A stretch of DNA of 64,000 bases from Pedobacter sp. (GCA_045629525.1 JAZQRH010000012.1:24023-88022); one strand, 5' to 3'; counted from the stretch's first letter, positions 4,534 through 57,703 are shown. The notes: generated by a model not told the origin, from the sequence alone. A program made the numbers and translations.

Positions 4534-6357
4534 ATGAAAATGAACAAAGGAAATATCAAAGGATTTTTCGTAGCCTGCTTAATTGCAGTTTTTAGCCTGT
4601 CGGCATGTGCGCAAGACCACAAAAAAAATCAAAATCGACTGCTTGCGATTGGCAAAGTAGTGGAAAATACGGTGTTGCTAAATAATCAAAACAACTTTAT
4701 TCCGATTACAGGGCTGAGTAGTAAAAAAATAGCTTCTGTTAATTTAGGTTTAAAAGACCAAATTGGCTTCGATAGTCTTCTCAATAAATATGCTCCGGTA
4801 ACAAGTGTGAACTCGTTAAAATATACGGACTCTGTCACCTTGAATGATTTAGAGGATGACCTAAAGTTTTTCAATGTTATAATTATTGCATTAGATGATA
4901 AAATGGCTGCGAATGGAAAAAATTTAAACTTCGTGACCAATTTAGCCAAGTCAAAACAAGTAGTTGTTGCCTTATTTGGTGATGGAGCAGCTTTAAAATC
5001 GTTCGACGCATTTAATGGTCCTTTGGTTTGGAGTTCGTCAAACAACGAAGAGACTGCTTTAGTAGTTCCTCAAATTATCTTTGGGGGCATTGCAGCCCAA
5101 CATTTCCTTACCAAAACCTATGGGGAGAAATATGCTATTGGCGCTGGCTACACCACACAAGTTATCCGTTTAAAATATACGGTTCCCGAAGATGCTGGTG
5201 TTAATAGCAATGATTTGAAAGAAATTGAGGATATCGTAAATGAAGGCATCGCAAAAAAAGCAGCTCCTGGCATGGTGGTACTTGTTGCCAAGGATGGGAA
5301 GGTAATTTATAACAAAGCATTTGGTTCGCACACTTACGAGAATGCGCAGGCTACAAAGGTTACAGATATTTTCGATTTGGCATCGGTTACTAAAACAACT
5401 GCAACCACGCCAGCGGTAATGCGTTTGGTAGAACAACAAAAATTGAAATTAGATACGAATGTTGGTTTTTACATAGCTAAAGCGCGTAATACTCCAATGA
5501 ATGGCATCAATGTACGTGAAGTTTTGCTGCATCAAGCAGGATTTATACCCTTTATTCCTTTCCATAACTTTGTGAGAGAAGGTGATTACAGTAGAGACTC
5601 TTCGGCAACGTATCCAACTAAAGTAGCTGATAACTACTATATCAAAAAAGGGTTTTTTAATGATTTTATGTGGCCAAGAATGTTAAATTCTCCAATAAAA
5701 ACCAGAGGGAAGTACGTTTACAGTGATATCAGTATGTATGTAATGCAAGACATCGTTGAGCATATCTCCGAAATGCCAGAAGATAAATATGTGCAGCAAA
5801 ATTTCTACGGGCCTTTAGGTATGCAAACTGCGGGGTATCTGCCAAGAAATCGCTTTCCAAAAAGTAGAATAGTTCCCACCGAAGATGATCAAGTATTTAG
5901 AAAGACCTTATTAGAAGGTTACGTACACGATCAAGGCGCAGCTCTGGCGGGCGGTGTTGCAGGTCATGCAGGTTTATTTGGTAACGCTAACGATTTGGCC
6001 ATCTATAATCAGATGTTATTGAATAAGGGTAGCTACGGCGGCGAACAATATTTTACGGCTGAAACGGTAGATTTATTTACTAAAAAACATACCGAAAATA
6101 GTCGAAGAGGCTTAGGTTTCGACAGATGGGATCCTGATTTAACGAAGAAATATCCATCAGAACTTGCTTCACCGCAAACTTTTGGGCATACCGGCTACAC
6201 CGGAATTGGCGTTTGGGTAGATCCTGCGAGAAACCTTGTCTACGTCTTCTTGTCAAATCGAGTCCATCCTGGCGTGAGCGAAATGCTAGGAAAACTTAAT
6301 ATTCGTCCACGTATCCAAGATGTGGTCAACAAAGCTATAGATAATGGAAAGAAATAA
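4534..6357 (+). CDS. Secreted serine hydrolase (beta-lactamase/AmiE family) with N-terminal GH3-C-like domain
   Basis: Signal peptide (LSAC/ACA-Q); FDLASVTK (SxxK), YVYSD, GHAGLF and FGHTGYTG motifs; N-terminal ~200 aa (VLLNN..FIP..) resembles the domain that follows GH3 in GH3/beta-lactamase fusions. Confidence 0.85.
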   Translation: MKMNKGNIKGFFVACLIAVFSLSACAQDHKKNQNRLLAIGKVVENTVLLNNQNNFIPITGLSSKKIASVNLGLKDQIGFDSLLNKYAPVTSVNSLKYTDSVTLNDLEDDLKFFNVIIIALDDKMAANGKNLNFVTNLAKSKQVVVALFGDGAALKSFDAFNGPLVWSSSNNEETALVVPQIIFGGIAAQHFLTKTYGEKYAIGAGYTTQVIRLKYTVPEDAGVNSNDLKEIEDIVNEGIAKKAAPGMVVLVAKDGKVIYNKAFGSHTYENAQATKVTDIFDLASVTKTTATTPAVMRLVEQQKLKLDTNVGFYIAKARNTPMNGINVREVLLHQAGFIPFIPFHNFVREGDYSRDSSATYPTKVADNYYIKKGFFNDFMWPRMLNSPIKTRGKYVYSDISMYVMQDIVEHISEMPEDKYVQQNFYGPLGMQTAGYLPRNRFPKSRIVPTEDDQVFRKTLLEGYVHDQGAALAGGVAGHAGLFGNANDLAIYNQMLLNKGSYGGEQYFTAETVDLFTKKHTENSRRGLGFDRWDPDLTKKYPSELASPQTFGHTGYTGIGVWVDPARNLVYVFLSNRVHPGVSEMLGKLNIRPRIQDVVNKAIDNGKK

Positions 6358-6364
6358 ATTTATA

Positions 6365-6754
6365 ATGTTTACACTAGCGCAAATTAATGCAGCTCATGCA
6401 AAGGTTAAATCGGGCGCCGATTTTCCAACTTATGTAAGAGACATGAAGACTCTCGGAGTTAAAAATTACACGGTGCAGGTGAGCGATGGTGCCACTGTTT
6501 ACATAGGTGCCGAAGGTTTTTTCATTTCATCTCCACCAAAGTACGCCGCATTAACGATCAACAAAATTTTGGATAAGCTGGGTTTTGAAGCTGACTTAAA
6601 ACTGCATCAAAATGGTGGTACAAACTATGTTCAATTTTGTGAGGACTGCGCAAAATCCGGTATAGCGGGCTGGGTAATGAGTTTGACAAAAAACACCTGC
6701 AGCTACTTTGATGAAAAAGGTACAACAATTTTAACCGAACTTATTCCTACTTAG
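6365..6754 (+). CDS. DUF1398 (YdfO-like) protein
   Basis: MFTLAQINAAHAKVKSGADFPTYVRDMKTLGV..Y.V.V.DG, HQNGGTNY..FC..CAKSGI; start set at ATG 6365 rather than the overlapping 6344. Confidence 0.8.
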   Translation: MFTLAQINAAHAKVKSGADFPTYVRDMKTLGVKNYTVQVSDGATVYIGAEGFFISSPPKYAALTINKILDKLGFEADLKLHQNGGTNYVQFCEDCAKSGIAGWVMSLTKNTCSYFDEKGTTILTELIPT

Positions 6755-6789
6755 ATATATGTATTAGCGGAAGATTTAAGTGTCTTCCG

Positions 6790-7365
6790 CTAATTTCCTT
6801 TGAGGAACGCTATCAATTTTTTCATTGCAATGGCTCTATGGCTAATTCTATTTTTTTCGGCCATGTCCATCTCCGCAAATGTAATATCGTAGCCATTGGG
6901 CTCAAATATGGGGTCATAGCCAAAACCATTTTCACCGCTCGATGTGGTGCGTATGGTTCCCTCAATAGTTCCTTCAAAAAGATGATTTTTGCCTTCTCTC
7001 ATTAGCGAAATTACCGTTCTAAATCGAGCCTTCCGGTTATTTTCACCTTCCATATTTTTTAACAAAAGTTGGAGATTAGTTGCGTCGTCTTTAATACCAC
7101 TATAGCGTGCCGAAAATATCCCAGGTGCGTTATTTAAGGCCTCTACTTCCAAACCACTGTCATCTGCAAAGCAATCTAATGCATAATTTTCGTAGACGTA
7201 TTTACTTTTCAGACTAGCATTTTCTGCAAAAGTATCTCCGGTTTCTGGAATATCTACCAAACACCCGATGTCTTTGAGGTTTAGAACTTCGTAAGTTCCA
7301 TCTAATATTTTTGCAACTTCTTCGGTTTTATGAGCGTTATTGGTTGCAAAGACTAATTTTTTCAT
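6790..7365 (-). CDS. rdgB: Non-canonical purine NTP pyrophosphatase (dITP/XTP)
   Basis: [34 protein letters not shown] and SHRA Ham1 motifs. Confidence 0.95.
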
Positions 7366-7371
7366 GTTGGC

Positions 7372-7977
7372 TTATAGATTTTTTAAAGTTCCCCATAACG
7401 CTTTTTTAGCAGGTATGTCTGTATCTAAATCATGCAGGTTGTGGGTAAATATGATCTTGGTTTCTTCAAAATTTCCGAGCTGATGTAGTGTTTGAAATGG
7501 TATGCCCAAATGCTCATTAGAAACACCGAAAGCAAAAACAGTTTTGCATTTAAAGAAGGCTTTAAAATGTTCAAATTTTGCAGAGCTATAAGCCGAATAG
7601 TTAACCAAGGCGAAATCGGCATTTTTTAAGTTAATAGATAGCACTAACTTTCTCAATAACTCTGTACCCTGCGGTGTGCTAACTGGATTTTCTTTATCGT
7701 TTACTAAAATTAAAATTGACTTTTCATTTTTCCCTAAGTACTTAAATTCTAAAGAAGCTTTGGGATAGTTTGCAGTCGGCTCTTCAAGTTTCGGCAATGT
7801 GGCAGTTTTTTCGGCGGCAATTGGCTCATTTTTTTGCGTTTCCTCTTTGCTAATGCCTTCTTTTAGAGGCTCAATTTTAGCCGAAGTTAAAGTCTGCGGG
7901 TCACCCACTAAATATATATCATCATTAAAAAATAAACGGAGCGCTTCGTCGTTATTAATAAGTTGGTTGCTATTCAT
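7372..7977 (-). CDS. Conserved hypothetical protein, possibly DNA polymerase III psi (HolD)-like
   Basis: Clean 201-aa ORF co-oriented with rdgB; short N-terminal motif, low-complexity linker, alpha/beta domain ending L..L......KKALW..L. Confidence 0.6.
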   Translation of the reverse strand: MNSNQLINNDEALRLFFNDDIYLVGDPQTLTSAKIEPLKEGISKEETQKNEPIAAEKTATLPKLEEPTANYPKASLEFKYLGKNEKSILILVNDKENPVSTPQGTELLRKLVLSINLKNADFALVNYSAYSSAKFEHFKAFFKCKTVFAFGVSNEHLGIPFQTLHQLGNFEETKIIFTHNLHDLDTDIPAKKALWGTLKNL

Positions 7978-8072
7978 TTTTTATGGAAAAATTTCTGTTA
8001 AAATTAGTTAAAAATCTTATTATAGCGCCTTAAATTGTTACTTTTATCCATTACTTAATAAACGCATCTTTT

Positions 8073-8654
8073 GTGAAAAAGGCCTGTTTTGTATTAGCTA
8101 TTGCATTATCTGGGGGTAATTTGTTTGCTCAAAACATTGCATCTATTAATGGAAATCCTATTAGTAGTGAAGAGTTTTTGTGGGTTTATCAGAAAAACAA
8201 TGGCAAAAATTCTGCTGTGAACTATAATGAGTTGGCTAACTATTTAAATTTGTATATCAATTTTAAATTGAAAGTGGCCGAAGCCAAATCTTTGGGATTA
8301 GATTTGGATAGTCTGTATAAGGAAGAAATTTCTGGATATGAGCAAGCACTGAAAGCTCAAAATAAAATTAGCGAAGGTAGCTCAGAATATCGCTACGTAA
8401 TGAACGAGTACAAAGAAGGCGTTTTGATGTTTAATGTGAGTGAGCAAAAGGTGTGGAATAAAATGCCTAATGACGATAAAGATTTTGCTGCTTTATTTGA
8501 TCAACCAAAGTACAAAGGGAAAGACTTTGAAGAGGTTAGAGGACAATTGGTTGCCGATTATCAACAAAGGATTGAGGCAGAATGGGTAAAGAATTTAAGA
8601 GCAAAATATAAAGTAAAAATTAACCAAGCGGAATTGAAGAAGTTAGCGAAGTAA
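8073..8654 (+). CDS. SurA-like chaperone lacking rotamase domains
   Basis: GTG start, signal peptide, IASINGNPISSEEF..Y.KNN..YL.LYINFKLKV.EA...GLD, and C-terminal FEEVRGQLVADYQ..IE..WVKNLRAKYKVKIN; no PPIase motif. Confidence 0.75.
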   Translation: MKKACFVLAIALSGGNLFAQNIASINGNPISSEEFLWVYQKNNGKNSAVNYNELANYLNLYINFKLKVAEAKSLGLDLDSLYKEEISGYEQALKAQNKISEGSSEYRYVMNEYKEGVLMFNVSEQKVWNKMPNDDKDFAALFDQPKYKGKDFEEVRGQLVADYQQRIEAEWVKNLRAKYKVKINQAELKKLAK

Positions 8655-14846: not shown

Positions 14847-16304
14847 CTATAAGGTTTTGTTCTTCATTTTCTCTAGGTCTTTTTGCATATCCTCGTGCGG
14901 TGTTTTTTGAATTTTCGCTTTAGCTATCGCGTCTTTTTGTGTCTTAATGGCTTCCGTTTCGTATCCTAATCTATAAAGAAGATGGGCCAATGTATCGTAA
15001 TAAGCCGCTTTGGCACTCAGTTCAATGGATCGTCTGCTCCACAGTAAGGCCTTAGTTAAATAATTTACATTCGTAGTTCCTGTTTGATAAAACCCCCAAG
15101 CTGCGCTATTTAAAGTATTTGCATAGGCGTTATATTCGTAGCTATCTACTACAGCGTAGGTTTTTGTTTGGCTCACAGCTTCGGGATGTTGCTTTTTTAA
15201 CTGCTCCAATTCTGCATGGCTAACGTTTTTCTTTATATTCCCTTGGGTTTGATGTTTTTTTCGAATCTCATCGAACTGCGATTTTGTAACTACTTGAATG
15301 TTTCTATCTTCTTTATCGAATTTCTGTTCAGCAGACTCAATCCTTTGTTTTTCACTATACTTCTTTGTAGCCTCAGCATTTAGGGTCATATAATACCTGT
15401 CATAGTAGGGCACTGCTAGTTTAAGGTAACAAGATGTATCACCAACAGCCTTATAGTAGTTTATCATCTTGTTACTGTAGGCCCACTCACCATTTCTTGT
15501 ATCTTTACCATATACCGCCCTAGCGAAATAAGCTGCAAAGTATGCTTGTTTCGAATCTTTATATTTGATAGCATTTTTTAAAGTGTTTTCTATAATCTCT
15601 TGATTTATTGCAATCCTATCTTTTAAAGGCTCGTTATTATAAATACTATCGTAAATCTTTTTACTGTTCATCGCTAATTTATGCGCTTTACTATAAGCAT
15701 AGGGCGCACCTTTCAATATGTACAGTATAGTCTGATAATCGTTAAAATCTGCTGGCTCTAAATTTTTGGCAAATTCCTCTATTAATTCCGCATTGTCGGT
15801 TATGCCTTTCGCTTTTCGCGCTTCAATGTACCGCTTAAGTTTTTGGTTATTTAATTTATCCGATAGGTAACTATTTTCAAGATCATAAATACTCGAATCC
15901 TTGCTCTTAGATAAAGCTTGATCAATCATTCTAAAATATTTTTCTTTGAAAGTACTCGCTCCGCTTTCTGAATAAAACACCTCTTTAGTGGAGTGCATGA
16001 ATACAAATGCTGGAAGGTTCCGAATTTTATATAAGGATAGTATCGGTGCAATTGTTTTATCCGCTATAGTGGTCTCAAACACTAAAAACTCAGATTTAAA
16101 TTTTTTGATAACGTCGTTCTCCTGATGTGCGGATTTAATGTTGTGTTTGTGCTCTGCCGGAGGATAAACGATAACCAAGATTGGTTTTTTCTCTACTTCG
16201 GATTTTTTGATAGCACTTTCGAGTGAGGGGAACTCGGAAAGCTTCTGAGCTTTCAACTGGTGAAAGCAAACGATAAGCAGCATTGTAATTAATCGAGTTT
16301 TCAT
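14847..16304 (-). CDS. Secreted protein with thioredoxin-like N-domain (no CxxC) and C-terminal TPR
   Basis: Signal peptide; SLESAIKKSEVEKKPILV.. and PAFVFM Trx_7-like segment; LNSAAW.FY..KAL.WS.RSI..YYDTLAHLLYRLG..EA...Q TPR. Confidence 0.65.
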   Translation of the reverse strand: MKTRLITMLLIVCFHQLKAQKLSEFPSLESAIKKSEVEKKPILVIVYPPAEHKHNIKSAHQENDVIKKFKSEFLVFETTIADKTIAPILSLYKIRNLPAFVFMHSTKEVFYSESGASTFKEKYFRMIDQALSKSKDSSIYDLENSYLSDKLNNQKLKRYIEARKAKGITDNAELIEEFAKNLEPADFNDYQTILYILKGAPYAYSKAHKLAMNSKKIYDSIYNNEPLKDRIAINQEIIENTLKNAIKYKDSKQAYFAAYFARAVYGKDTRNGEWAYSNKMINYYKAVGDTSCYLKLAVPYYDRYYMTLNAEATKKYSEKQRIESAEQKFDKEDRNIQVVTKSQFDEIRKKHQTQGNIKKNVSHAELEQLKKQHPEAVSQTKTYAVVDSYEYNAYANTLNSAAWGFYQTGTTNVNYLTKALLWSRRSIELSAKAAYYDTLAHLLYRLGYETEAIKTQKDAIAKAKIQKTPHEDMQKDLEKMKNKTL

Positions 16305-16393: not shown

Positions 16394-16401
16394 TATATTT
16401 G
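16394..16401 (+). promoter_or_regulatory. -7 promoter element driving the TPP riboswitch leader
   Basis: TATATTTG ending 6 nt upstream of the aptamer 5' end. Confidence 0.7.
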
Positions 16402-16407
16402 CACTAC

Positions 16408-16557
16408 TCAAAGGGGTGCTTACATTCTTATTGTAGGCTGAGATTACACCCAGTTTTTGAGTTAATAGTGAAATTTGAGTCTCCTGCGAATCGATTTGAA
16501 TTTTCACTTTTAACTTTAAAACGCACCTGATGCGGATAATACCGACGTAGGGAAGAG
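16408..16557 (+). promoter_or_regulatory. TPP (thiamine pyrophosphate) riboswitch aptamer with ~70-nt inserted helix
   Basis: GGGGTGC-P3(cttaca/tgtagg)-CTGAGA-ttac-ACCC ... ACCTGAT-gcgg-ATAAT-accg-ACGTAGGGA; all canonical TPP signature blocks are present. Confidence 0.93.
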
Positions 16558-16569
16558 GTTACCGATATG

Positions 16570-16602
16570 GCTGTTTCGCCCTGAAAGCAGTTTTCACTTT
16601 TT
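16570..16602 (+). terminator. Riboswitch expression-platform terminator
   Basis: GCTGTTTC-gccct-GAAAGCAG followed by TTTTCACTTTTT; the 5' arm could alternatively pair with AGGGAAGAG (16549-16557) as an antiterminator. Confidence 0.6.
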
Positions 16603-16631
16603 AACATCCCTTTGGGAATAATGAATTGAGA

Positions 16632-17261
16632 ATGGAAATTCAGGAAATACTGCGCATTTTTATGGAGCAGGTTAGATCTACGGGTTATTTAGAGTGGTTT
16701 GCAGTCAGCTTCGGCGTAGCAGAGGTGTTGTTAGCGAGACGTAATAATATTTTGCTCTATCCGGCTGGTATTGTGAGTATTGTTTTGGCTTTATACCTAA
16801 AGCTCACCTCAAAACTATATGCGGAAAGCTTACTTAGCATGTATTATTTGATAATGAGCGTTTACGGGTGGATGATTTGGTCTCAGCGAAAAAGAAACAA
16901 ACAAGCAGCATTACCTGTCAGTTGGACCACAAAAAGTGAACTTCAAATTGCGCTAACTATTTCCATCGGCGGATATTTTGTATTGTATGGCTTTTTGGTG
17001 CAGTTTACAAATTCAGATGTTCCGATCCTAGACGCTTTTGTATCGTCTACCGCTTGGGCTGGAATGTGGCTGTTGGCCCGCCGAAAAATCGAAAATTGGA
17101 TATTTCTGAACGTTTCTAATATTGTAGCCATCCCACTAATGTGGCATAAAGATTTTGTCATGTTTGCCTTCCTTACCATGTTCTTTTTTGTCGTTGCTAT
17201 TTTTGGTTATATCGATTGGAAGAAAATTTACAAATCACAACAACTTAACCCACTTAATTAA
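16632..17261 (+). CDS. pnuC: PnuC-family vitamin transporter, probably thiamine-specific (PnuT)
   Basis: Multi-TM protein with LEWFAV.FG....LLARR.NI..YP.GI, YGW.IW, DAF.S..A..GMWLLARRKIENW and FGYIDW; directly downstream of the TPP riboswitch. Confidence 0.88.
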   Translation: MEIQEILRIFMEQVRSTGYLEWFAVSFGVAEVLLARRNNILLYPAGIVSIVLALYLKLTSKLYAESLLSMYYLIMSVYGWMIWSQRKRNKQAALPVSWTTKSELQIALTISIGGYFVLYGFLVQFTNSDVPILDAFVSSTAWAGMWLLARRKIENWIFLNVSNIVAIPLMWHKDFVMFAFLTMFFFVVAIFGYIDWKKIYKSQQLNPLN

Positions 17262-18340
17262 TGAATACCCAAACAACTTGGCAACAGCGCATCTCTTCAT
17301 TAGCGGCTTCATCTGAGGAATTGGGCACTTTGCATCCCGACGTTTTGGAAATTGCTTATCAAGAGAATTGGTTTAAGCTATACGTTCCTGTCGCTTATGG
17401 TGGTCCAGGAAAAAAACTTCCAGAAATTTTAAGGATCGAAGAAGCGTTAGCCTATATTGATGGCAGTACTGCATGGACCGTCACTCTCTGTAGTGGTGCT
17501 GCATGGTTTGCCGGCTTTTTAGACCCTGCTCTTGTAACCGAAATATTTGTAGAGCGAGAGGTTTGTTTCGCAGGTAGTGGGTCCGTTGGAGGAACTGCTC
17601 AGCAAGTTGGCGAAGGTTACTTAATTAACGGTCACTGGAAGTATGCAAGTGGAGCGTTGCATGCAACCATCTTTACAGCTAACTGCATATTACAAAATGC
17701 ACAAGGGAAGGATTTTTTGGATGATGAAGGAAAACCTGTAGTGAAATCATTTATCCTAAAAAAGGACGAAGTAAATATTTTGCCAGGTTGGTCTTATTTT
17801 GGTTTGGTCGCTACAGGAAGTCACGCTTTCGAAGTTGAGAATTTGCTGGTACCCCAAAACCGCTCGTTCGAGATTAATTCTACGCCTAAAGTTGCTGATG
17901 AAGGTTTCGATTATCCTTTCTTGCAATTAGCAGAAACCACTTTGGCTGTAAACAGCTTAGGTATGGGCCAACGTTTCCTAGATTTAGTTCATAGCGCTTT
18001 TTACAGTCGATCTGGATTGCGACGATATAATGAAAACCAAACCGCTTTTTTCGAGTCAGAGTTTTTAAAGTGTAAGTCTGGTTTAATAACAGCAAAAGAT
18101 AATTTTTACCGTGCTTTTGATAATTCTTGGCAACAATTGCTGGAGAATGGTAGCATAAACGATGATCAATTACGGTTAGTAAGTAAAGCAAGTAGAGAAC
18201 TGGCGCATCAATCAAGAATTTCGGTTGATACCATGTATCCGTATGCTGGATTGGAGGCTGCAAAGAAAGAAACAGAACTTAATCGGGTTTGGCGAGACAT
18301 CCACACGGCGAGCCAGCACGCATTGTTAACTTTTAAGTAA
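17261..18340 (+). CDS. Acyl-CoA-dehydrogenase-fold flavin-dependent monooxygenase (HsaA/IacA-like, group D)
   Basis: LYVP..YGG, DGSTAW, GY.ING.WKYASG..HA, W...GL.ATGSH, and C-terminal RVWRDIHTASQH; TAATG overlap with pnuC. Confidence 0.85.
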   Translation: MNTQTTWQQRISSLAASSEELGTLHPDVLEIAYQENWFKLYVPVAYGGPGKKLPEILRIEEALAYIDGSTAWTVTLCSGAAWFAGFLDPALVTEIFVEREVCFAGSGSVGGTAQQVGEGYLINGHWKYASGALHATIFTANCILQNAQGKDFLDDEGKPVVKSFILKKDEVNILPGWSYFGLVATGSHAFEVENLLVPQNRSFEINSTPKVADEGFDYPFLQLAETTLAVNSLGMGQRFLDLVHSAFYSRSGLRRYNENQTAFFESEFLKCKSGLITAKDNFYRAFDNSWQQLLENGSINDDQLRLVSKASRELAHQSRISVDTMYPYAGLEAAKKETELNRVWRDIHTASQHALLTFK

Positions 18341-18375
18341 AAAAAAAGCCCTAATTTCTTAGGGCTTTTTTTTTT
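18339..18375. terminator. Bidirectional intrinsic terminator
   Basis: A9-GCCCTA-atttct-TAGGGC-T10 between convergent genes. Confidence 0.85.
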
Positions 18376-19426
18376 ATTGATACTGAATGTATATTGGTTT
18401 TGGTTTTAACTTAACCAATTCTTCTGGTGTCATTAAGCGATTAGGAGACTTCTTCAAATCGTTTTTATAAAATATTTTGAAGCCTGTAAATTGTACTGGT
18501 TCGCTATAAATAAAATGGCGATAAGTGCCTAACTTTAAATCCGGTTCACCCCAACCATCCATGTGCATTACCACTTGTACTTCTGGACGCAATTTGATGT
18601 TTTGTGAATTGCTTACCATTTTTCTTGTAAAACGATGGATCACAAAAACTTTTGGAGGCAAATTGTATTTCTTAACCAAGTTAGCAAGGTAACCAGAAAC
18701 GTAGTTAATTTCGCTGGCATCATAAGTGCCAATTTTTTTACCTGGCAATACGCCGCCTTTCATAGAGAACTCTGGGTCGATACCCAAATGAACATTAGGC
18801 AGTTTTAAATATTCTTCTAACAAGGGCAATTCTACTTGAATGGTACTTAGTGCTACTTGTATATCTAAAAATACAACCATGTTTTTACGCATTTTAGCAA
18901 TGTTCAATACAGAGTCGATATGTTTGAAAGGCATTCGGTTACGGTATTTACCGTCTTTACCAGGATCTCCAGCTGCAACAACTGCGATGTAATGCAACGC
19001 GGGTTGTACAGGCGTGCTTGGATCTGCTTTTTCCCAAGCCGCAACTTCTTTATCCAACATATTCAACATGGTTTTAGGCTCGTACTCGCCCAGTGCACCC
19101 ATCTTTTTGGAGTAAAGATTACCGTAATAGCACACAATTCTCTTGAATGGCAATATGGCGCCGTCTAACGGAATAGGCTGGTTTTTTACAGGCCACTTTC
19201 CAGTGGTATCTCCATTAGCATTTGCTTTGATAAGCTCATTATACTTGGCAGTATCAACAGGAGTCCTAAGATCTACCTCTTCTTCCTCTTGAGCTACTGA
19301 TGTACTGTCCGTAGTGTTTTTGGCTGCTTTCGGGTTTTTCTCGTTAGCACCGGTGGTGCAATAGGTAAATGTGCAAATGGTAGCTCCCGCCACCAAGATC
19401 ATGCTTGCGATCTTAGTTATTTTCAT
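18374..19426 (-). CDS. Conserved hypothetical exported (lipo)protein, possible TIM-barrel hydrolase fold
   Basis: ATG 19426 gives a signal peptide with Cys; conserved-looking core RIVCYYGN..MGALGEY, PALHYIA.VA, FLDIQV, HLGIDPEF, IHRF, MHMDGWG, TGFKIFYKND. Confidence 0.7.
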   Translation of the reverse strand: MKITKIASMILVAGATICTFTYCTTGANEKNPKAAKNTTDSTSVAQEEEEVDLRTPVDTAKYNELIKANANGDTTGKWPVKNQPIPLDGAILPFKRIVCYYGNLYSKKMGALGEYEPKTMLNMLDKEVAAWEKADPSTPVQPALHYIAVVAAGDPGKDGKYRNRMPFKHIDSVLNIAKMRKNMVVFLDIQVALSTIQVELPLLEEYLKLPNVHLGIDPEFSMKGGVLPGKKIGTYDASEINYVSGYLANLVKKYNLPPKVFVIHRFTRKMVSNSQNIKLRPEVQVVMHMDGWGEPDLKLGTYRHFIYSEPVQFTGFKIFYKNDLKKSPNRLMTPEELVKLKPKPIYIQYQ

Positions 19427-19609
19427 ATTGGATTTCTGGATTTCTAGCTTCAAAAGTAAGTCATTTGGTCTAACAAGCTCAATGAACTTATCAACATACA
19501 TACACTTGTAAACGTTTAATTTACCTTTATATCAGTGAGGTTAGATATAATTTTCGCATTCGAGATATAATATCTCTCTTGAGGTTGTCACTTTAAATAT
19601 TTTTTACGG

Positions 19610-22238: not shown

Positions 22239-22928
22239 ATGAATGCTTTAATAACTGGTGCTACAAAGGGTATAGGGCGAGCAATCGCGATTGAATTGGC
22301 TAAAAATGGCTATAACATCGTGGCTTGTGCTAGAAATGAGGAAGATTTGTCAACCTTAAAAAAAGATTTGTTGCTTTTCGGGGTGGATGTTTTTACGTTT
22401 AAGGTGGAGTGCGCTATTAAAGCTGAACTTTTGAGTTTTCTGGAAAGTGCCCTAGCTGTTGCCAAAAATTTCGATGTGCTAGTTAACAACGTTGGGATGT
22501 ATATGCCCGGAAATTTATTGACAGAAGACGATGAAAATTTTGAACTTCAGCAATTGGTAAATACAAATGCTGCCTACTATCTCTCGAAAACAGTGGGCAG
22601 ATTGATGGTTGAGCGAAATAAAGGGCATATTTTCAACATCTGCTCGGTAGCCAGTAAAGCCCCAGTTGACCATGCCGGAAGTTATAGTGTAACAAAAGCG
22701 GCAATGCTCAGTCTTAATCATGTATTGAGAAAGGAATTAGCTCCTCATCAAGTTAAGGTGACGGCTTTTGTGCCAGGCTCTACATATACAGCATCATGGG
22801 AAGGAACTGAATTGGAACAATCCAAATTTGTGCAGCCAGAAGATATCGCAAAGCTTGTAAATGTAATCCTGAATTTAAGTGCGGGCGCTAACGTTGACGA
22901 AGTTGAGATAAGTCCGTTAAATTTTTAA
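22239..22928 (+). CDS. Short-chain dehydrogenase/reductase
   Basis: TGATKGIG, LVNNVG and YSVTK (YxxxK) motifs. Confidence 0.9.
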   Translation: MNALITGATKGIGRAIAIELAKNGYNIVACARNEEDLSTLKKDLLLFGVDVFTFKVECAIKAELLSFLESALAVAKNFDVLVNNVGMYMPGNLLTEDDENFELQQLVNTNAAYYLSKTVGRLMVERNKGHIFNICSVASKAPVDHAGSYSVTKAAMLSLNHVLRKELAPHQVKVTAFVPGSTYTASWEGTELEQSKFVQPEDIAKLVNVILNLSAGANVDEVEISPLNF

Positions 22929-25281: not shown

Positions 25282-25289
25282 TATCTTTG
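25282..25289 (+). promoter_or_regulatory. -7 element immediately upstream of ispG (a second one lies at 25240-25247)
   Basis: TATCTTTG then 6 nt (tacacc) then ATG 25296; TAAATTTG further upstream. Confidence 0.55.
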
Positions 25290-25295
25290 TACACC

Positions 25296-27254
25296 ATGCA
25301 TAAAGAAGCAATTTTGTTAAATGGCGGTTATTGCAACAGCCTTACTCAGTATTCTAAGTTTATAACTCGTGAAGTAAAAATAGGCGATGTGCCCATGGGC
25401 GCTCATCATCCCATCCGGATACAGTCTATGACTACCACCGATACCATGGATACTTTCGGTACTGTTGAGCAAACAATTCGTATGGTAGAAAGCGGTTGCG
25501 AGTACGTTCGTATCACTGCTCCAAGCATTAAGGAAGCTGAGAATTTAGCAAATATTAAAAAAGAATTACGTTACAGAGGGTATAATGTTCCTTTAGTGGC
25601 TGATATTCATTTTACGCCAAATGCGGCCGAGGTTGCTGCTCGTATTGTAGAGAAAGTGCGTGTTAACCCAGGAAATTACGCCGATAAAAAGAAGTTCGAA
25701 AATATAGACTATACAGATGCCGAATATGAGGCGGAGCTGGAACGCATCTACTCCAAGTTTTCTCCCCTCGTAAATATTTGCAAAGAAAATGGCACTGCCA
25801 TGCGCATTGGCACCAATCACGGCTCTTTATCAGATCGTATCATGAGCCGCTACGGTGATACCCCAAAGGGGATGGTGGAGTCGGCAATGGAGTTTATCCG
25901 TATTTGCGAAGATTTGAATTTTTATAACCTGGTGATTTCCATGAAATCGAGTAATACGCAAGTAATGGTGCAGGCCTACCGCTTGTTAGTGCAAACTATG
26001 GTGGCCGAGGGGATGAACTATCCTTTGCATTTAGGGGTTACCGAAGCAGGAGATGGTGAAGATGGTCGAATTAAGTCTGCGGTGGGCATTGGCACTTTGC
26101 TAGCCGATGGTTTGGGTGATACGATTAGAGTTTCCCTCACAGAAGATCCAGAATTTGAAGCGCCTGTTGCTAAAGCTTTAGCGGCTCGCTTCGAAAAACA
26201 ACGCGGAAAAGAAGTGCCTGAAGATGATATGATGCGTTTGGTACAACGCCAAGCGTTAAGTCTATATCATCCATTTCAATATCAACGTAGGGCAAGTCAA
26301 GAAGCAAATAGCTTTGGTGGGCATCAAGTACCTCGTGTACTTATAGATCTTAGTCACCAAAATTTGAAAGATCCCGCAATTTTAGGCAAAGTAGGATATG
26401 ATTATTCTTTGATGTTGGATAAATACAATTTGTCTGACCAAGCCTGTGATATGGTTTACCTAGGTGATAATTTGCCCTCGTTTAATTTGCCTGGCGGATT
26501 GAAGCAGTTGTACAATGCTAATACTTGGAGCCAAGTTGCTCGTTTAGAAAATTGCTATCCGCTGTTTGATGGGGTAATGAACTATAAAAATGTGTCATCA
26601 ACTCATCAAAAGCTTAATTTTATAAAGATTTTAGCCGAAGATTTGGATGCCGAGCAGTTAAATGGGTTGCAAAATGTAGTTTTAGTTTTACATACCGAAG
26701 CCGAAAATGCAATGCAAATTTTGCGCTATGCTTTTATCCAATTGCTAGCAGCAGATATTAAATTGCCCGTAGTGGTTAAAAGCGATTATCCTAATGTTAA
26801 TTTGGAGGATTTTCAATTATACACCTCCACAGATCTGGGTGGCTTGCTTATTGATGGTTTTGGTGATGGCGTATGGATTTCATCAAACACGATAGATTTG
26901 GCAGATGTAAACTCTGTTTCTTTTGGTGTTTTGCAAGCTACACGTACGCGTATTTCTAAAACGGAATATATTTCGTGTCCTAGCTGCGGTCGTACCTTGT
27001 TCGATTTGCAAGAAACTACCCAAGCCATTCGTTCACGTACTTCGCATTTAAAGGGCATCAAAATTGGGATTATGGGTTGCATTGTTAACGGTCCCGGAGA
27101 AATGGCTGATGCGGACTACGGATATGTGGGTGCCGGCGTTGACAGAATTACGCTGTACAGAGGACAACAAGTGGTGAAAAAAAACGTGAAAACAGCTGAC
27201 GCCATTGATGAGTTAATTGGCATTATACGAGAAGACGGTAATTGGGTAGAGTAA
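25296..27254 (+). CDS. ispG: HMBPP synthase IspG/GcpE (long form with insertion domain)
   Basis: IRIQSMT, VADIHF, RVNPGN, RIGTNHGSL, HLGVTEAG, DTIRVSLT, CPSCGR and MGCIVNGPGE motifs. Confidence 0.96.
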   Translation: MHKEAILLNGGYCNSLTQYSKFITREVKIGDVPMGAHHPIRIQSMTTTDTMDTFGTVEQTIRMVESGCEYVRITAPSIKEAENLANIKKELRYRGYNVPLVADIHFTPNAAEVAARIVEKVRVNPGNYADKKKFENIDYTDAEYEAELERIYSKFSPLVNICKENGTAMRIGTNHGSLSDRIMSRYGDTPKGMVESAMEFIRICEDLNFYNLVISMKSSNTQVMVQAYRLLVQTMVAEGMNYPLHLGVTEAGDGEDGRIKSAVGIGTLLADGLGDTIRVSLTEDPEFEAPVAKALAARFEKQRGKEVPEDDMMRLVQRQALSLYHPFQYQRRASQEANSFGGHQVPRVLIDLSHQNLKDPAILGKVGYDYSLMLDKYNLSDQACDMVYLGDNLPSFNLPGGLKQLYNANTWSQVARLENCYPLFDGVMNYKNVSSTHQKLNFIKILAEDLDAEQLNGLQNVVLVLHTEAENAMQILRYAFIQLLAADIKLPVVVKSDYPNVNLEDFQLYTSTDLGGLLIDGFGDGVWISSNTIDLADVNSVSFGVLQATRTRISKTEYISCPSCGRTLFDLQETTQAIRSRTSHLKGIKIGIMGCIVNGPGEMADADYGYVGAGVDRITLYRGQQVVKKNVKTADAIDELIGIIREDGNWVE

Positions 27255-57629: not shown

Positions 57630-57703
57630 GGGGGATTAGCTCATTTGGCTAGAGCGCTTCGCTGGCAGTGAAGAGGTGATCGGTTCGAATCCGATATTCT
57701 CCA
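57630..57703 (+). tRNA. tRNA-Ala(GGC)
   Basis: Acceptor GGGGGAT/ATTCTCC with G3:U70 Ala identity pair; anticodon arm CTTCG-cTGGCag-TGAAG; T-loop GGTTCGAATCC; CCA not encoded. Confidence 0.96.

Follow-up and report, generated by a model that had tools for sequence, protein, structure and literature searches.

What is a flavin-dependent enzyme of the acyl-CoA dehydrogenase (ACAD) fold doing in a vitamin-uptake operon that opens with a thiamine pyrophosphate (TPP) riboswitch? The question is raised by positions 16394-18375 of a stretch of Pedobacter sp. DNA (GCA_045629525.1 JAZQRH010000012.1:24023-88022), analysed over its whole length of 64,000 nucleotides (nt) and termed here the window. This region carries a two-gene unit comprising a -7 promoter box, a TPP-type aptamer, a PnuC-family gene (pnuT), a flavoenzyme gene and a strong terminator. 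The initial annotation, which proposed that the pair represents a new step in thiamine salvage, had named a -7 box, an aptamer, a pnuC-family gene, a TAATG-coupled enzyme gene and a strong 3' terminator, and all of these elements were found where it had placed them. The analysis shows that the unit is a single operon, led by a TPP aptamer and encoding a channel and a tightly coupled flavoenzyme, and a link of the enzyme to thiamine is strongly supported. The reading preferred here, to which we assign a probability of roughly one half, is that of a TPP-riboswitch-controlled thiamine-scavenging operon whose enzyme oxygenates a thiamine-related molecule. The substrate of the enzyme, and a role in salvage as opposed to detoxification or cofactor sparing, are what we infer. 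The components of the operon, with the evidence for each, are as follows.

16394-16401, plus strand: -7 promoter box of the Bacteroidota type (TAtaTTTG), read directly in the sequence
~16405-16560, plus strand: TPP-type riboswitch aptamer of class A, with P1, P2/P3 carrying CUGAGA, and P4/P5; partial RF00059 match and both conserved halves
16452-16524, plus strand: inserted 73-nt hairpin at the P2-P4 junction, giving a four-way junction; fold of -21.9 kcal/mol
16571-16604, plus strand: leader hairpin CUGUUUCGCCCUGAAAGCAG followed by a U-rich tract, a weak candidate terminator; sequence kept in Pedobacter leaders
16632-17261, plus strand: pnuT, PnuC-family facilitator of 209 amino acids from the ATG at 16632; PF04973, TIGR01528 and structure 4QTN
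17261-18340, plus strand: ACAD-fold, flavin-dependent monooxygenase-like enzyme of 359 amino acids; PF08028, PF02771, AlphaFold2 model and Foldseek
18339-18374, no strand assigned: bidirectional intrinsic terminator with A-tract, GCCCUAA/UUAGGGC hairpin and T-tract; fold of -20.5 kcal/mol, z-score of -4.9

The association of the enzyme gene with pnuT and the aptamer was followed through its relatives, which are encoded in at least 566 species genomes and for which a search of representatives returned 221 clusters (50% identity) at E ≤1e-30. A genome locus search with a 14-sequence alignment provided the best 80 loci, mostly from Pedobacter, 79 of which have enough upstream DNA. In 73 of these 79 loci pnuT lies immediately upstream of the enzyme gene, and a TPP-type aptamer is present in all 73 (69 of class A and four of a variant described below). 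A second scan, of metagenomes, was led by a family member 42% identical to the window enzyme, to escape simple synteny. The enzymes recovered are 41-50% identical to that of the window, except for one Pedobacter-type locus (L148) at 63%. Among the 62 metagenome loci with enough upstream DNA, pnuT is adjacent in 53 and the aptamer was seen in the available DNA of 41 of the 53; of the remaining 12, about eight break off within, or shortly before, a TonB-receptor gene on the upstream side, two are ambiguous and two show no aptamer by pattern. When the family is cut at ~55% identity, the context of pnuT plus aptamer appears in 12 of 26 clusters, and the architecture recurs in more than 110 independent loci. 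The two reading frames lie close together, with a median gap of 4 nt between pnuT stop and enzyme start and an overlap in 37 of 135 pairs. Loci placed by exact look-up belong to Ferruginibacter and Mucilaginibacter, besides Pedobacter, Nubsella, Pelobium and Pseudopedobacter. The pairing is shown to be ancient and maintained in Sphingobacteriaceae and Chitinophaga-related bacteria. The initial annotation had been prepared to abandon its proposal should orthologs lack any association with TPP riboswitches or thiamine genes; what emerged, in both locus sets and across the 12 clusters, is the association itself.

Many loci display an extended order of aptamer, TonB-dependent receptor, pnuT and enzyme, with a TonB receptor upstream in at least 22. 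Downstream, the only recurrent co-directional partner is a phosphodiesterase/nucleotide pyrophosphatase of family PF01663, present in 18 of 40 neighbours, the product of which could dephosphorylate thiamine phosphates on the outer side of the inner membrane. Extended operons include those of L099 (2930-5323 and 8239-9891) and L115 (2944-5334 and 7170-8858), and there are about 20 further loci.

Transcript data agree with the predicted unit. A search for RNA runs containing the window itself found none, only DNA metagenomes, and none were found for a Mucilaginibacter-type locus. The orthologous locus L032, on a contig labelled Pedobacter sp. Leaf176, is covered in four RNA-seq runs. Its RNA contigs start at 6014-6029, at the start of the aptamer and 17-32 nt downstream of the -7 box (5990-5997), and continue unbroken through pnuT into the enzyme gene, which two of them (6014-8200 and 6016-8225) traverse. 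Immediately upstream of the unit the RNA depth is zero. Contig boundaries agree with the predicted unit in all four runs, the contigs being not strand-resolved and open to DNA carry-over. Co-transcription of aptamer, pnuT and enzyme gene, as expected in the initial annotation, is supported by these contigs of a Pedobacter relative, which span all three.

The signals that delimit the operon are shared with other members of the group. In orthologous leaders the -7 box is located at an equal distance 5' of the aptamer; a sigma-70 pattern scan is not relevant here because it does not cover the -7 promoter type of Bacteroidota. The pnuT stop codon occupies 17259-17261 and shares one base with the ATG of the enzyme gene, creating the TAATG at 17259-17263. 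The 3' terminator (18339-18374) is common to the operon and to the convergent open reading frame (ORF) at 18374-19501 on the minus strand; a pattern scan for terminators missed it, apparently owing to pairing between the A and T runs on either side of the hairpin. The hairpin at 16571-16604 is retained across leaders as the sequence CUGUUUCGCCC(C/U)..CAG followed by the U-rich tract, and its loop, CGCCC(U/C), is complementary, as read by eye, to the aptamer segment GGGGUG, a complementarity that would fit an antiterminator scheme. Its fold is marginal, and the leader terminator is a weak and uncertain candidate: the hairpin and U-rich tract announced by the initial annotation are there, while the terminator they were said to form escaped both detection methods described below. 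A long-range pairing CUCAAAGGGG/CCCUUUGGG near the start codon, suggested by the fold of the window, was dropped as it is not kept in other leaders. Separately, a small hairpin located 15-25 nt 5' of the pnuT start (16608-16616 in the window, with counterparts in 20 leaders) remains paired despite changes in sequence (CCCUUUGGG, GCCUUUGGC, GUCGAGAGAC, CUGUUUAACAG), and may be part of the expression platform.

Whether the leader contains a TPP aptamer at all required closer inspection, as a scan of the window with Rfam at gathering threshold gave no TPP riboswitch match, a result repeated when nine related loci were included. A local scan gave an RF00059 score of 35.3 bits against a cut-off of 54.3 (E of 2e-5), with only the 3' half aligned. 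Both sensor halves are nonetheless complete. The pyrimidine-sensor half is intact (GGGGTGC at 16413-16419, CTGAGA at 16438-16443 and ACCC at 16448-16451), and the pyrophosphate-sensor half, ACCTGATGCGGATAATACCGACGTAGGGAAGAGG at 16525-16558, aligns to the Rfam model with high posterior probability and displays P4/P5 with its internal loop (CCUGAU..GGAUAAU..CGUAGGGA). The window aptamer falls below the threshold because the 73-nt hairpin sits between the 3' strand of P2 and P4. This insertion site, after the P2 3' strand, differs from that of the optional hairpin in the Rfam model, placed between CUGAGA and ACCC. The two conserved halves are found again in 113 related leaders, in which the junction ranges from 4 to 99 nt. 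The 111 distinct junction inserts of 18-99 nt are unrelated in sequence and have a median folding z-score of -4.5 against shuffles, with 94% below -2. P5 displays compensatory exchanges across loci (CG/UA and GC/AU). Eight orthologous leaders have a short insert (4-38 nt) or none at all; of these, the insert-free L109 alone passes the Rfam threshold, with 59.7 bits.

Compared with RF00059, the window aptamer retains all conserved core nucleotides of both sensor helices and differs in the hairpin following the P2 3' strand and in its score below the gathering threshold. On these sequence features we accept it as a genuine TPP-type aptamer, for which TPP binding is predicted, and it belongs to a four-way-junction subclass overlooked by standard annotation. 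The aptamer claimed initially is therefore of the TPP type, with both halves in place, and lacks the standard Rfam match that such a name would normally carry. The hypervariable 18-99-nt hairpin between P2 and P4 was seen in leaders L003-L071 and L087-L165, where even short inserts bring the aptamers below the Rfam gathering score. Riboswitches of this junction-hairpin type are probably unannotated in Bacteroidota genomes.

The second gene encodes an enzyme that matches PF08028 at its C-terminus and, weakly, the ACAD N-terminal domain PF02771; Pfam gave no match in the enzyme to the classical ACAD C-terminal domain or to the middle domain. Its scores lie below the NCBIfam equivalog cut-offs of HsaA (89.9 vs 450), HpaH-C2 (50.5 vs 650) and SfnB (29.6 vs 430.9). 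By sequence, the nearest solved relatives are Rv3094c (E of 8.5e-23), HsaA, XiaF and C2-HpaH. Rv3094c is a flavin-dependent ethionamide sulfoxygenase that groups with two-component monooxygenases and shares a transcript with a reductase (PMC9904262). An AlphaFold2 model of the window enzyme (predicted local distance difference test score, pLDDT, of 83.8 and predicted template modelling score, pTM, of 0.84) was compared with known structures using Foldseek, and the top 20 matches were all Rv3094c, XiaF, HsaA, C2-HpaH or the Rhodococcus putative hydroxylase 2or0. Template modelling (TM) scores were 0.80-0.85 for monooxygenase components (0.85 for Rv3094c) against 0.68-0.77 for true ACADs, which also presented a higher root mean square deviation (rmsd).

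Flavin-site residues were mapped from the published Rv3094c positions through a HMMER alignment. Rv3094c residues Trp-80, Gly-113, Phe-136, Ser-138 and Trp-174 correspond to Trp-72, Gly-105, Tyr-128, Ser-130 and Trp-177 of the enzyme, and Leu-179, Ser-184, Thr-347 and His-351 to Leu-182, Ser-187, Thr-349 and His-353; most of the mapped residues are invariant across the family. At the pocket and gate, positions of Rv3094c are changed to small residues (Trp-115 to Gly-107, Pro-117 to Val-109, Phe-218 to Leu-221, Phe-221 to Ala-224 and Phe-352 to Ala-354), which suggests a substrate site roomier than that of Rv3094c. Domain matches, Foldseek ranking and flavin-site residues agree in supporting, at the level of a predicted model, an ACAD-fold flavin monooxygenase type of enzyme rather than a true acyl-CoA dehydrogenase, in line with the class initially put forward. 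Domain fusions among longer homologs of the enzyme gave no functional clue. NCBI assigns one protein 68% identical to the window enzyme (P0088) to Agrobacterium tumefaciens; the relatives of this protein point instead to Pedobacter contamination or to a contig with the wrong label.

The protein encoded by the first gene displays the fold and length (~200 amino acids) of the PnuC family, matching PF04973 over residues 21-200 (E of 7e-49), TIGR01528 (75.5 bits vs a cut-off of 42.45) and the PnuC structure 4QTN (E of 1e-6). The ORF list starts the gene at a TTG (16626), and the ATG at 16632 fits homolog alignments better. PnuC homologs 44-79% identical to it are encoded directly 5' of the enzyme gene in 126 loci. 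Its assignment as PnuT, a transporter of thiamine and not of nicotinamide riboside, is drawn from context, namely the TPP aptamer and the TonB receptor. One protein cluster at 90% identity (cluster 6, around L137) mixes 204-residue PnuC and 364-residue enzyme proteins, possibly the trace of a gene call in the collection that fused the two frames or read through from one into the other.

A variant aptamer ties the enzyme to thiamine-type sensing in another manner. Its pyrimidine-sensor half is unchanged, while P4/P5 reads CCU(N)GACCGG-AUAAUG-CCGGUU-AGG, such that the pyrophosphate-binding internal loop has become a continuous helix with a one-base bulge. In thiM this loop is the site of G60, C77 and G78 (2GDI numbering). 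Six Pedobacter-type loci (L063, L064, L067, L068, L148 and L169) carry the variant ahead of pnuT-enzyme. In three Chitinophaga-type loci without pnuT, those of Chitinophaga terrae (L072), C. silvatica (L083) and a related contig (L166), a compact TPP-like aptamer ends 11-13 nt before the start codon of the enzyme gene itself. A TPP-like aptamer precedes the enzyme gene even where the transporter is missing. Positions of the variant are as follows.

L063, 6176-6262: variant aptamer before pnuT-enzyme
L064, 6195-6282: variant aptamer before pnuT-enzyme
L148, 4128-4215: variant aptamer before pnuT-enzyme
L169, 3246-3334: variant aptamer before pnuT-enzyme
L072, 6880-6960: variant aptamer before the enzyme gene alone
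L083, 4908-4990: variant aptamer before the enzyme gene alone
L166, 603-685: variant aptamer before the enzyme gene alone

In all nine loci the variant is followed by pnuT-enzyme or by the enzyme gene on its own, and it was seen nowhere else. Its Rfam scores straddle the threshold (56.1, 42.8 and 39.2 bits). Covariation was seen for P1 alone, among the Chitinophaga sequences, a weak test with nine mostly invariant sequences, and minimum-energy folds of the variant leaders did not separate an ON from an OFF switch. The variant provides a second, RNA-based route to the small molecule on which the enzyme acts. Among other observations, the enzyme gene in Chitinophaga and Flavobacterium is neighboured by a set comprising an extracytoplasmic function (ECF) sigma factor, a FecR anti-sigma factor and a large TonB transducer (coordinates of the set are L072 122-5507, L073 1354-6832, L083 1-4629 and L075 8172-13313), which is divergent at the aptamer-bearing Chitinophaga loci. 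An aldo-keto reductase gene lies downstream in the three full-length Chitinophaga genome loci (L072, L073 and L083), and L072 and L083 contain an Ada-like AraC/MGMT gene.

Taken as a thiamine-scavenging operon, the unit would work in the following way. With TPP plentiful the aptamer would be bound and expression would fall; with TPP scarce the operon would be made. The receptor and phosphodiesterase, where present, would bring dephosphorylated thiamine-type molecules to the periplasm, and PnuT would equilibrate them across the inner membrane. The enzyme, in the least certain steps of the scheme, would obtain reduced flavin mononucleotide (FMN) or flavin adenine dinucleotide (FAD) from a reductase encoded elsewhere and might oxygenate a thiamine-related molecule taken up alongside thiamine or in its place, be it an oxidised, degraded or analogous form. 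The product would be usable by, or tolerable to, the cell. Pnu channels are equilibrative and need a cytoplasmic trap, as in the PnuC/NadR and PnuT systems, and because of this the conversion would maintain the inward gradient, amounting to metabolic trapping. An extended proposal holds that the enzyme oxygenates a thiamine vitamer or breakdown product from the environment in a reaction not described to date, that this reaction traps the molecule for PnuT, and that the variant aptamer senses the unphosphorylated compound instead of TPP. We regard this combination as doubtful and advance it tentatively. If true, an oxygenase would serve as a Pnu trap, a role known so far only for kinases, and the variant aptamer would represent a new ligand specificity within the TPP riboswitch fold.

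Several observations weigh against a thiamine-scavenging role. The enzyme family includes several subclades without pnuT or aptamer, in unrelated contexts. The ECF sigma/FecR/TonB-transducer set adjoins the enzyme gene in two Flavobacterium species and in Chitinophaga sp. 30R24; elsewhere the neighbours of the gene encode an M20 peptidase, PTPS or TGT. On two Chitinophaga-type contigs (L084, 4539-7497, and L085, 4495-7501) a 138-residue single-domain EamA protein is encoded directly before the enzyme gene and replaces pnuT. These contigs have no aptamer, and they are the only loci with a flavin reductase gene near that of the enzyme, an FMN_red/flavodoxin-like reductase 850 nt downstream, past a divergent gene for 213 amino acids. 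No flavin reductase gene was found within ~12 kb in the window or at the syntenic locus, nor among 40 co-directional downstream neighbours of other loci; the remark of the initial annotation that none is encoded nearby holds. In L153 and L156, pnuT-enzyme loci whose upstream DNA exceeds 5 kb, the pattern revealed no aptamer, and neither a thiamine pyrophosphokinase gene nor any thi gene was found in cis at the loci examined, the 40 downstream neighbours included. The leader terminator (16571-16604) was unseen by the pattern scan, and RNAalifold on 20 orthologous leaders predicted no stable terminator. In B. thetaiotaomicron, transcripts of riboswitch-linked transporters barely respond to thiamine (PMC5613172), and the riboswitch-associated orphan pair oarX-fmnO gave no phenotype with five oxidised thiamine derivatives (PMC11223231). 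By analogy, associations between riboswitches and orphan genes can resist a simple salvage reading.

Among other explanations, the strongest is that toxic analogues of thiamine (candidates are bacimethrin-type pyrimidines and oxythiamine-like or thiazolone forms) enter through PnuT under TPP starvation and are destroyed by the enzyme, which would so protect the cell instead of feeding it. We consider this unlikely. It draws on the same association data as the scavenging role, and the closest solved relative, Rv3094c, does oxygenate a xenobiotic thioamide (PMC9904262). The Chitinophaga gene standing alone behind an aptamer free of the pyrophosphate pocket, which could sense an unphosphorylated analogue, would also suit a defence, as would the glyoxalase-family and Ada-like neighbours of some loci. 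However, no toxin-related gene is consistently linked, folding leaves the switch direction of the variant aptamer undecided, and retention of the enzyme in hundreds of species within an uptake operon suggests a routine substrate, not an occasional one. Less probable again is a sparing function, in which the enzyme, induced under TPP shortage and leaving thiamine compounds untouched, would replace or circumvent a TPP-dependent reaction without needing TPP itself. B12 riboswitches that switch on B12-independent enzymes are a precedent, the three Chitinophaga-type loci combine aptamer and enzyme without the transporter, and the subclades lacking a thiamine context show that the fold works in other settings. 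Yet in most loci the enzyme gene overlaps or nearly abuts pnuT, and its place between uptake genes, with the receptor upstream and the phosphodiesterase downstream, points to an imported molecule. To our knowledge, no ACAD-fold monooxygenase replaces a TPP enzyme, which also counts against sparing.

The two remaining explanations are strongly disfavoured. That an ordinary aromatic, indole or steroid-type hydroxylase resembling HsaA, IacA or C2-HpaH came to follow pnuT by chance is improbable: some databases do name homologs "indole-3-acetate monooxygenase" or "HsaA", and HsaA is the best NCBIfam match, but at 89.9 bits it is far from its cut-off of 450. Such a passenger would hardly keep its place down to ~41% identity, through 12 clusters and two bacterial families, at minimal gene distance and, in a relative, in a common transcript, and the aptamer stays with the enzyme gene where pnuT is absent. 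Least probable of all is a true acyl-CoA dehydrogenase acting on a thioester of coenzyme A (CoA), despite the database name "acyl-CoA dehydrogenase family protein" and the weak PF02771 match. The C-terminal match is to PF08028 and not to the classical ACAD domain, the middle domain is unmatched, monooxygenases come first among structural neighbours with ACADs at lower TM scores and higher rmsd, and the motif at the C-terminus lines up with the region around the catalytic His in Rv3094c and C2-HpaH.

Genes around the operon were recorded as well. It is flanked by ORFs at 14847-16304 (minus strand, 485 amino acids) and 18374-19501 (minus strand, 375 amino acids), neither with a Pfam or NCBIfam match; synteny of the latter extends to Nubsella (L001) and to Pedobacter sp. 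MW01-1-1 (L168). Further along, window positions 25287-27254 encode a 655-residue GcpE/IspG with two matched stretches, which points to the form with an inserted domain. A tRNA at 57630-57703 is the only Rfam gathering-threshold match in the window.

Thiamine salvage and repair are far less mapped than synthesis, and the few orphan genes behind TPP riboswitches, oarX and fmnO among them, have long defied explanation. The enzyme family described here is tied to thiamine uptake by riboswitch, gene order, near-overlap of frames and transcripts, and offers, in Bacteroidota common in soil and around plants, a testable candidate for a reaction still missing. Standard annotation displays the operon as "PnuC plus acyl-CoA dehydrogenase", which may explain why it escaped notice, and it was possibly overlooked also because the junction hairpin pushes the aptamers below the Rfam threshold. 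The literature searched contained no paper on the pairing of pnuT with an ACAD-fold enzyme, on the junction-insertion subclass or on the variant aptamer, an absence that is not proof of novelty.

Among known flavoenzymes, the closest parallel is with the group D ACAD-fold monooxygenases (Rv3094c, XiaF, HsaA, C2-HpaH and DszC). The window enzyme shares their fold (TM scores of 0.80-0.85), the flavin-contacting residues and the C-terminal His. It differs in its identity of 17-24%, with no equivalog threshold reached, in small residues replacing pocket and gate aromatics, and in its shorter length of 359 amino acids; unlike the Rv3093c-Rv3094c pair, its gene has no adjoining reductase gene. The combination of a Pnu-family facilitator gene with a gene for a cytoplasmic enzyme recalls the trapping pairs PnuC-NadR and PnuT-thiamine pyrophosphokinase. 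The traps known from these pairs are kinases; an oxygenase in this role would be new.

A nearer counterpart in regulation is oarX-fmnO, orphan redox genes behind TPP riboswitches, in which fmnO encodes a predicted FMN monooxygenase and of which the function is still unsolved (PMC11223231). These genes were missing from the set of known salvage genes against which the initial annotation had judged the enzyme; that set was incomplete to this extent (PMC11223231). In both cases an enzyme is tied to thiamine only by riboswitch and gene clustering, and oarX-fmnO has been proposed to salvage or detoxify thiamine derivatives. The reported distribution of oarX-fmnO covers only Firmicutes, Actinobacteria and Proteobacteria, and fmnO always occurs with the reductase gene oarX (PMC11223231). 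The present enzyme, told apart from FmnO by description, belongs to Bacteroidota, has a transporter as its partner and lacks an adjoining short-chain reductase: none was found beside the enzyme gene in any locus examined, and the nearest adh_short gene of the window (22239-22928) lies beyond four intervening minus-strand genes.

In overall architecture the operon most resembles the OMthi-pnuT-tnr3 system of gut Bacteroides, which is led by a TPP riboswitch, is mostly organised as one operon and ends in Tnr3, a pyrophosphokinase (PMC5613172). The general statement of the initial annotation, that pnuT of Bacteroidota usually adjoins genes for a TonB receptor and a pyrophosphokinase, is correct for these gut Bacteroides (PMC5613172). 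Both systems, which occur in the same phylum, combine a TPP riboswitch, a TonB-dependent receptor, a PnuT channel and one cytoplasmic enzyme. In contrast, the ACAD-fold flavoenzyme occupies the slot of thiamine pyrophosphokinase, which is absent from the 40 downstream neighbours, the Pedobacter loci are without the receptor, many relatives add the PF01663 phosphodiesterase, and the aptamer carries the extra P2-P4 hairpin. A TPP-regulated operon for thiamine uptake is thus known in kind, while its enzyme partner is new.

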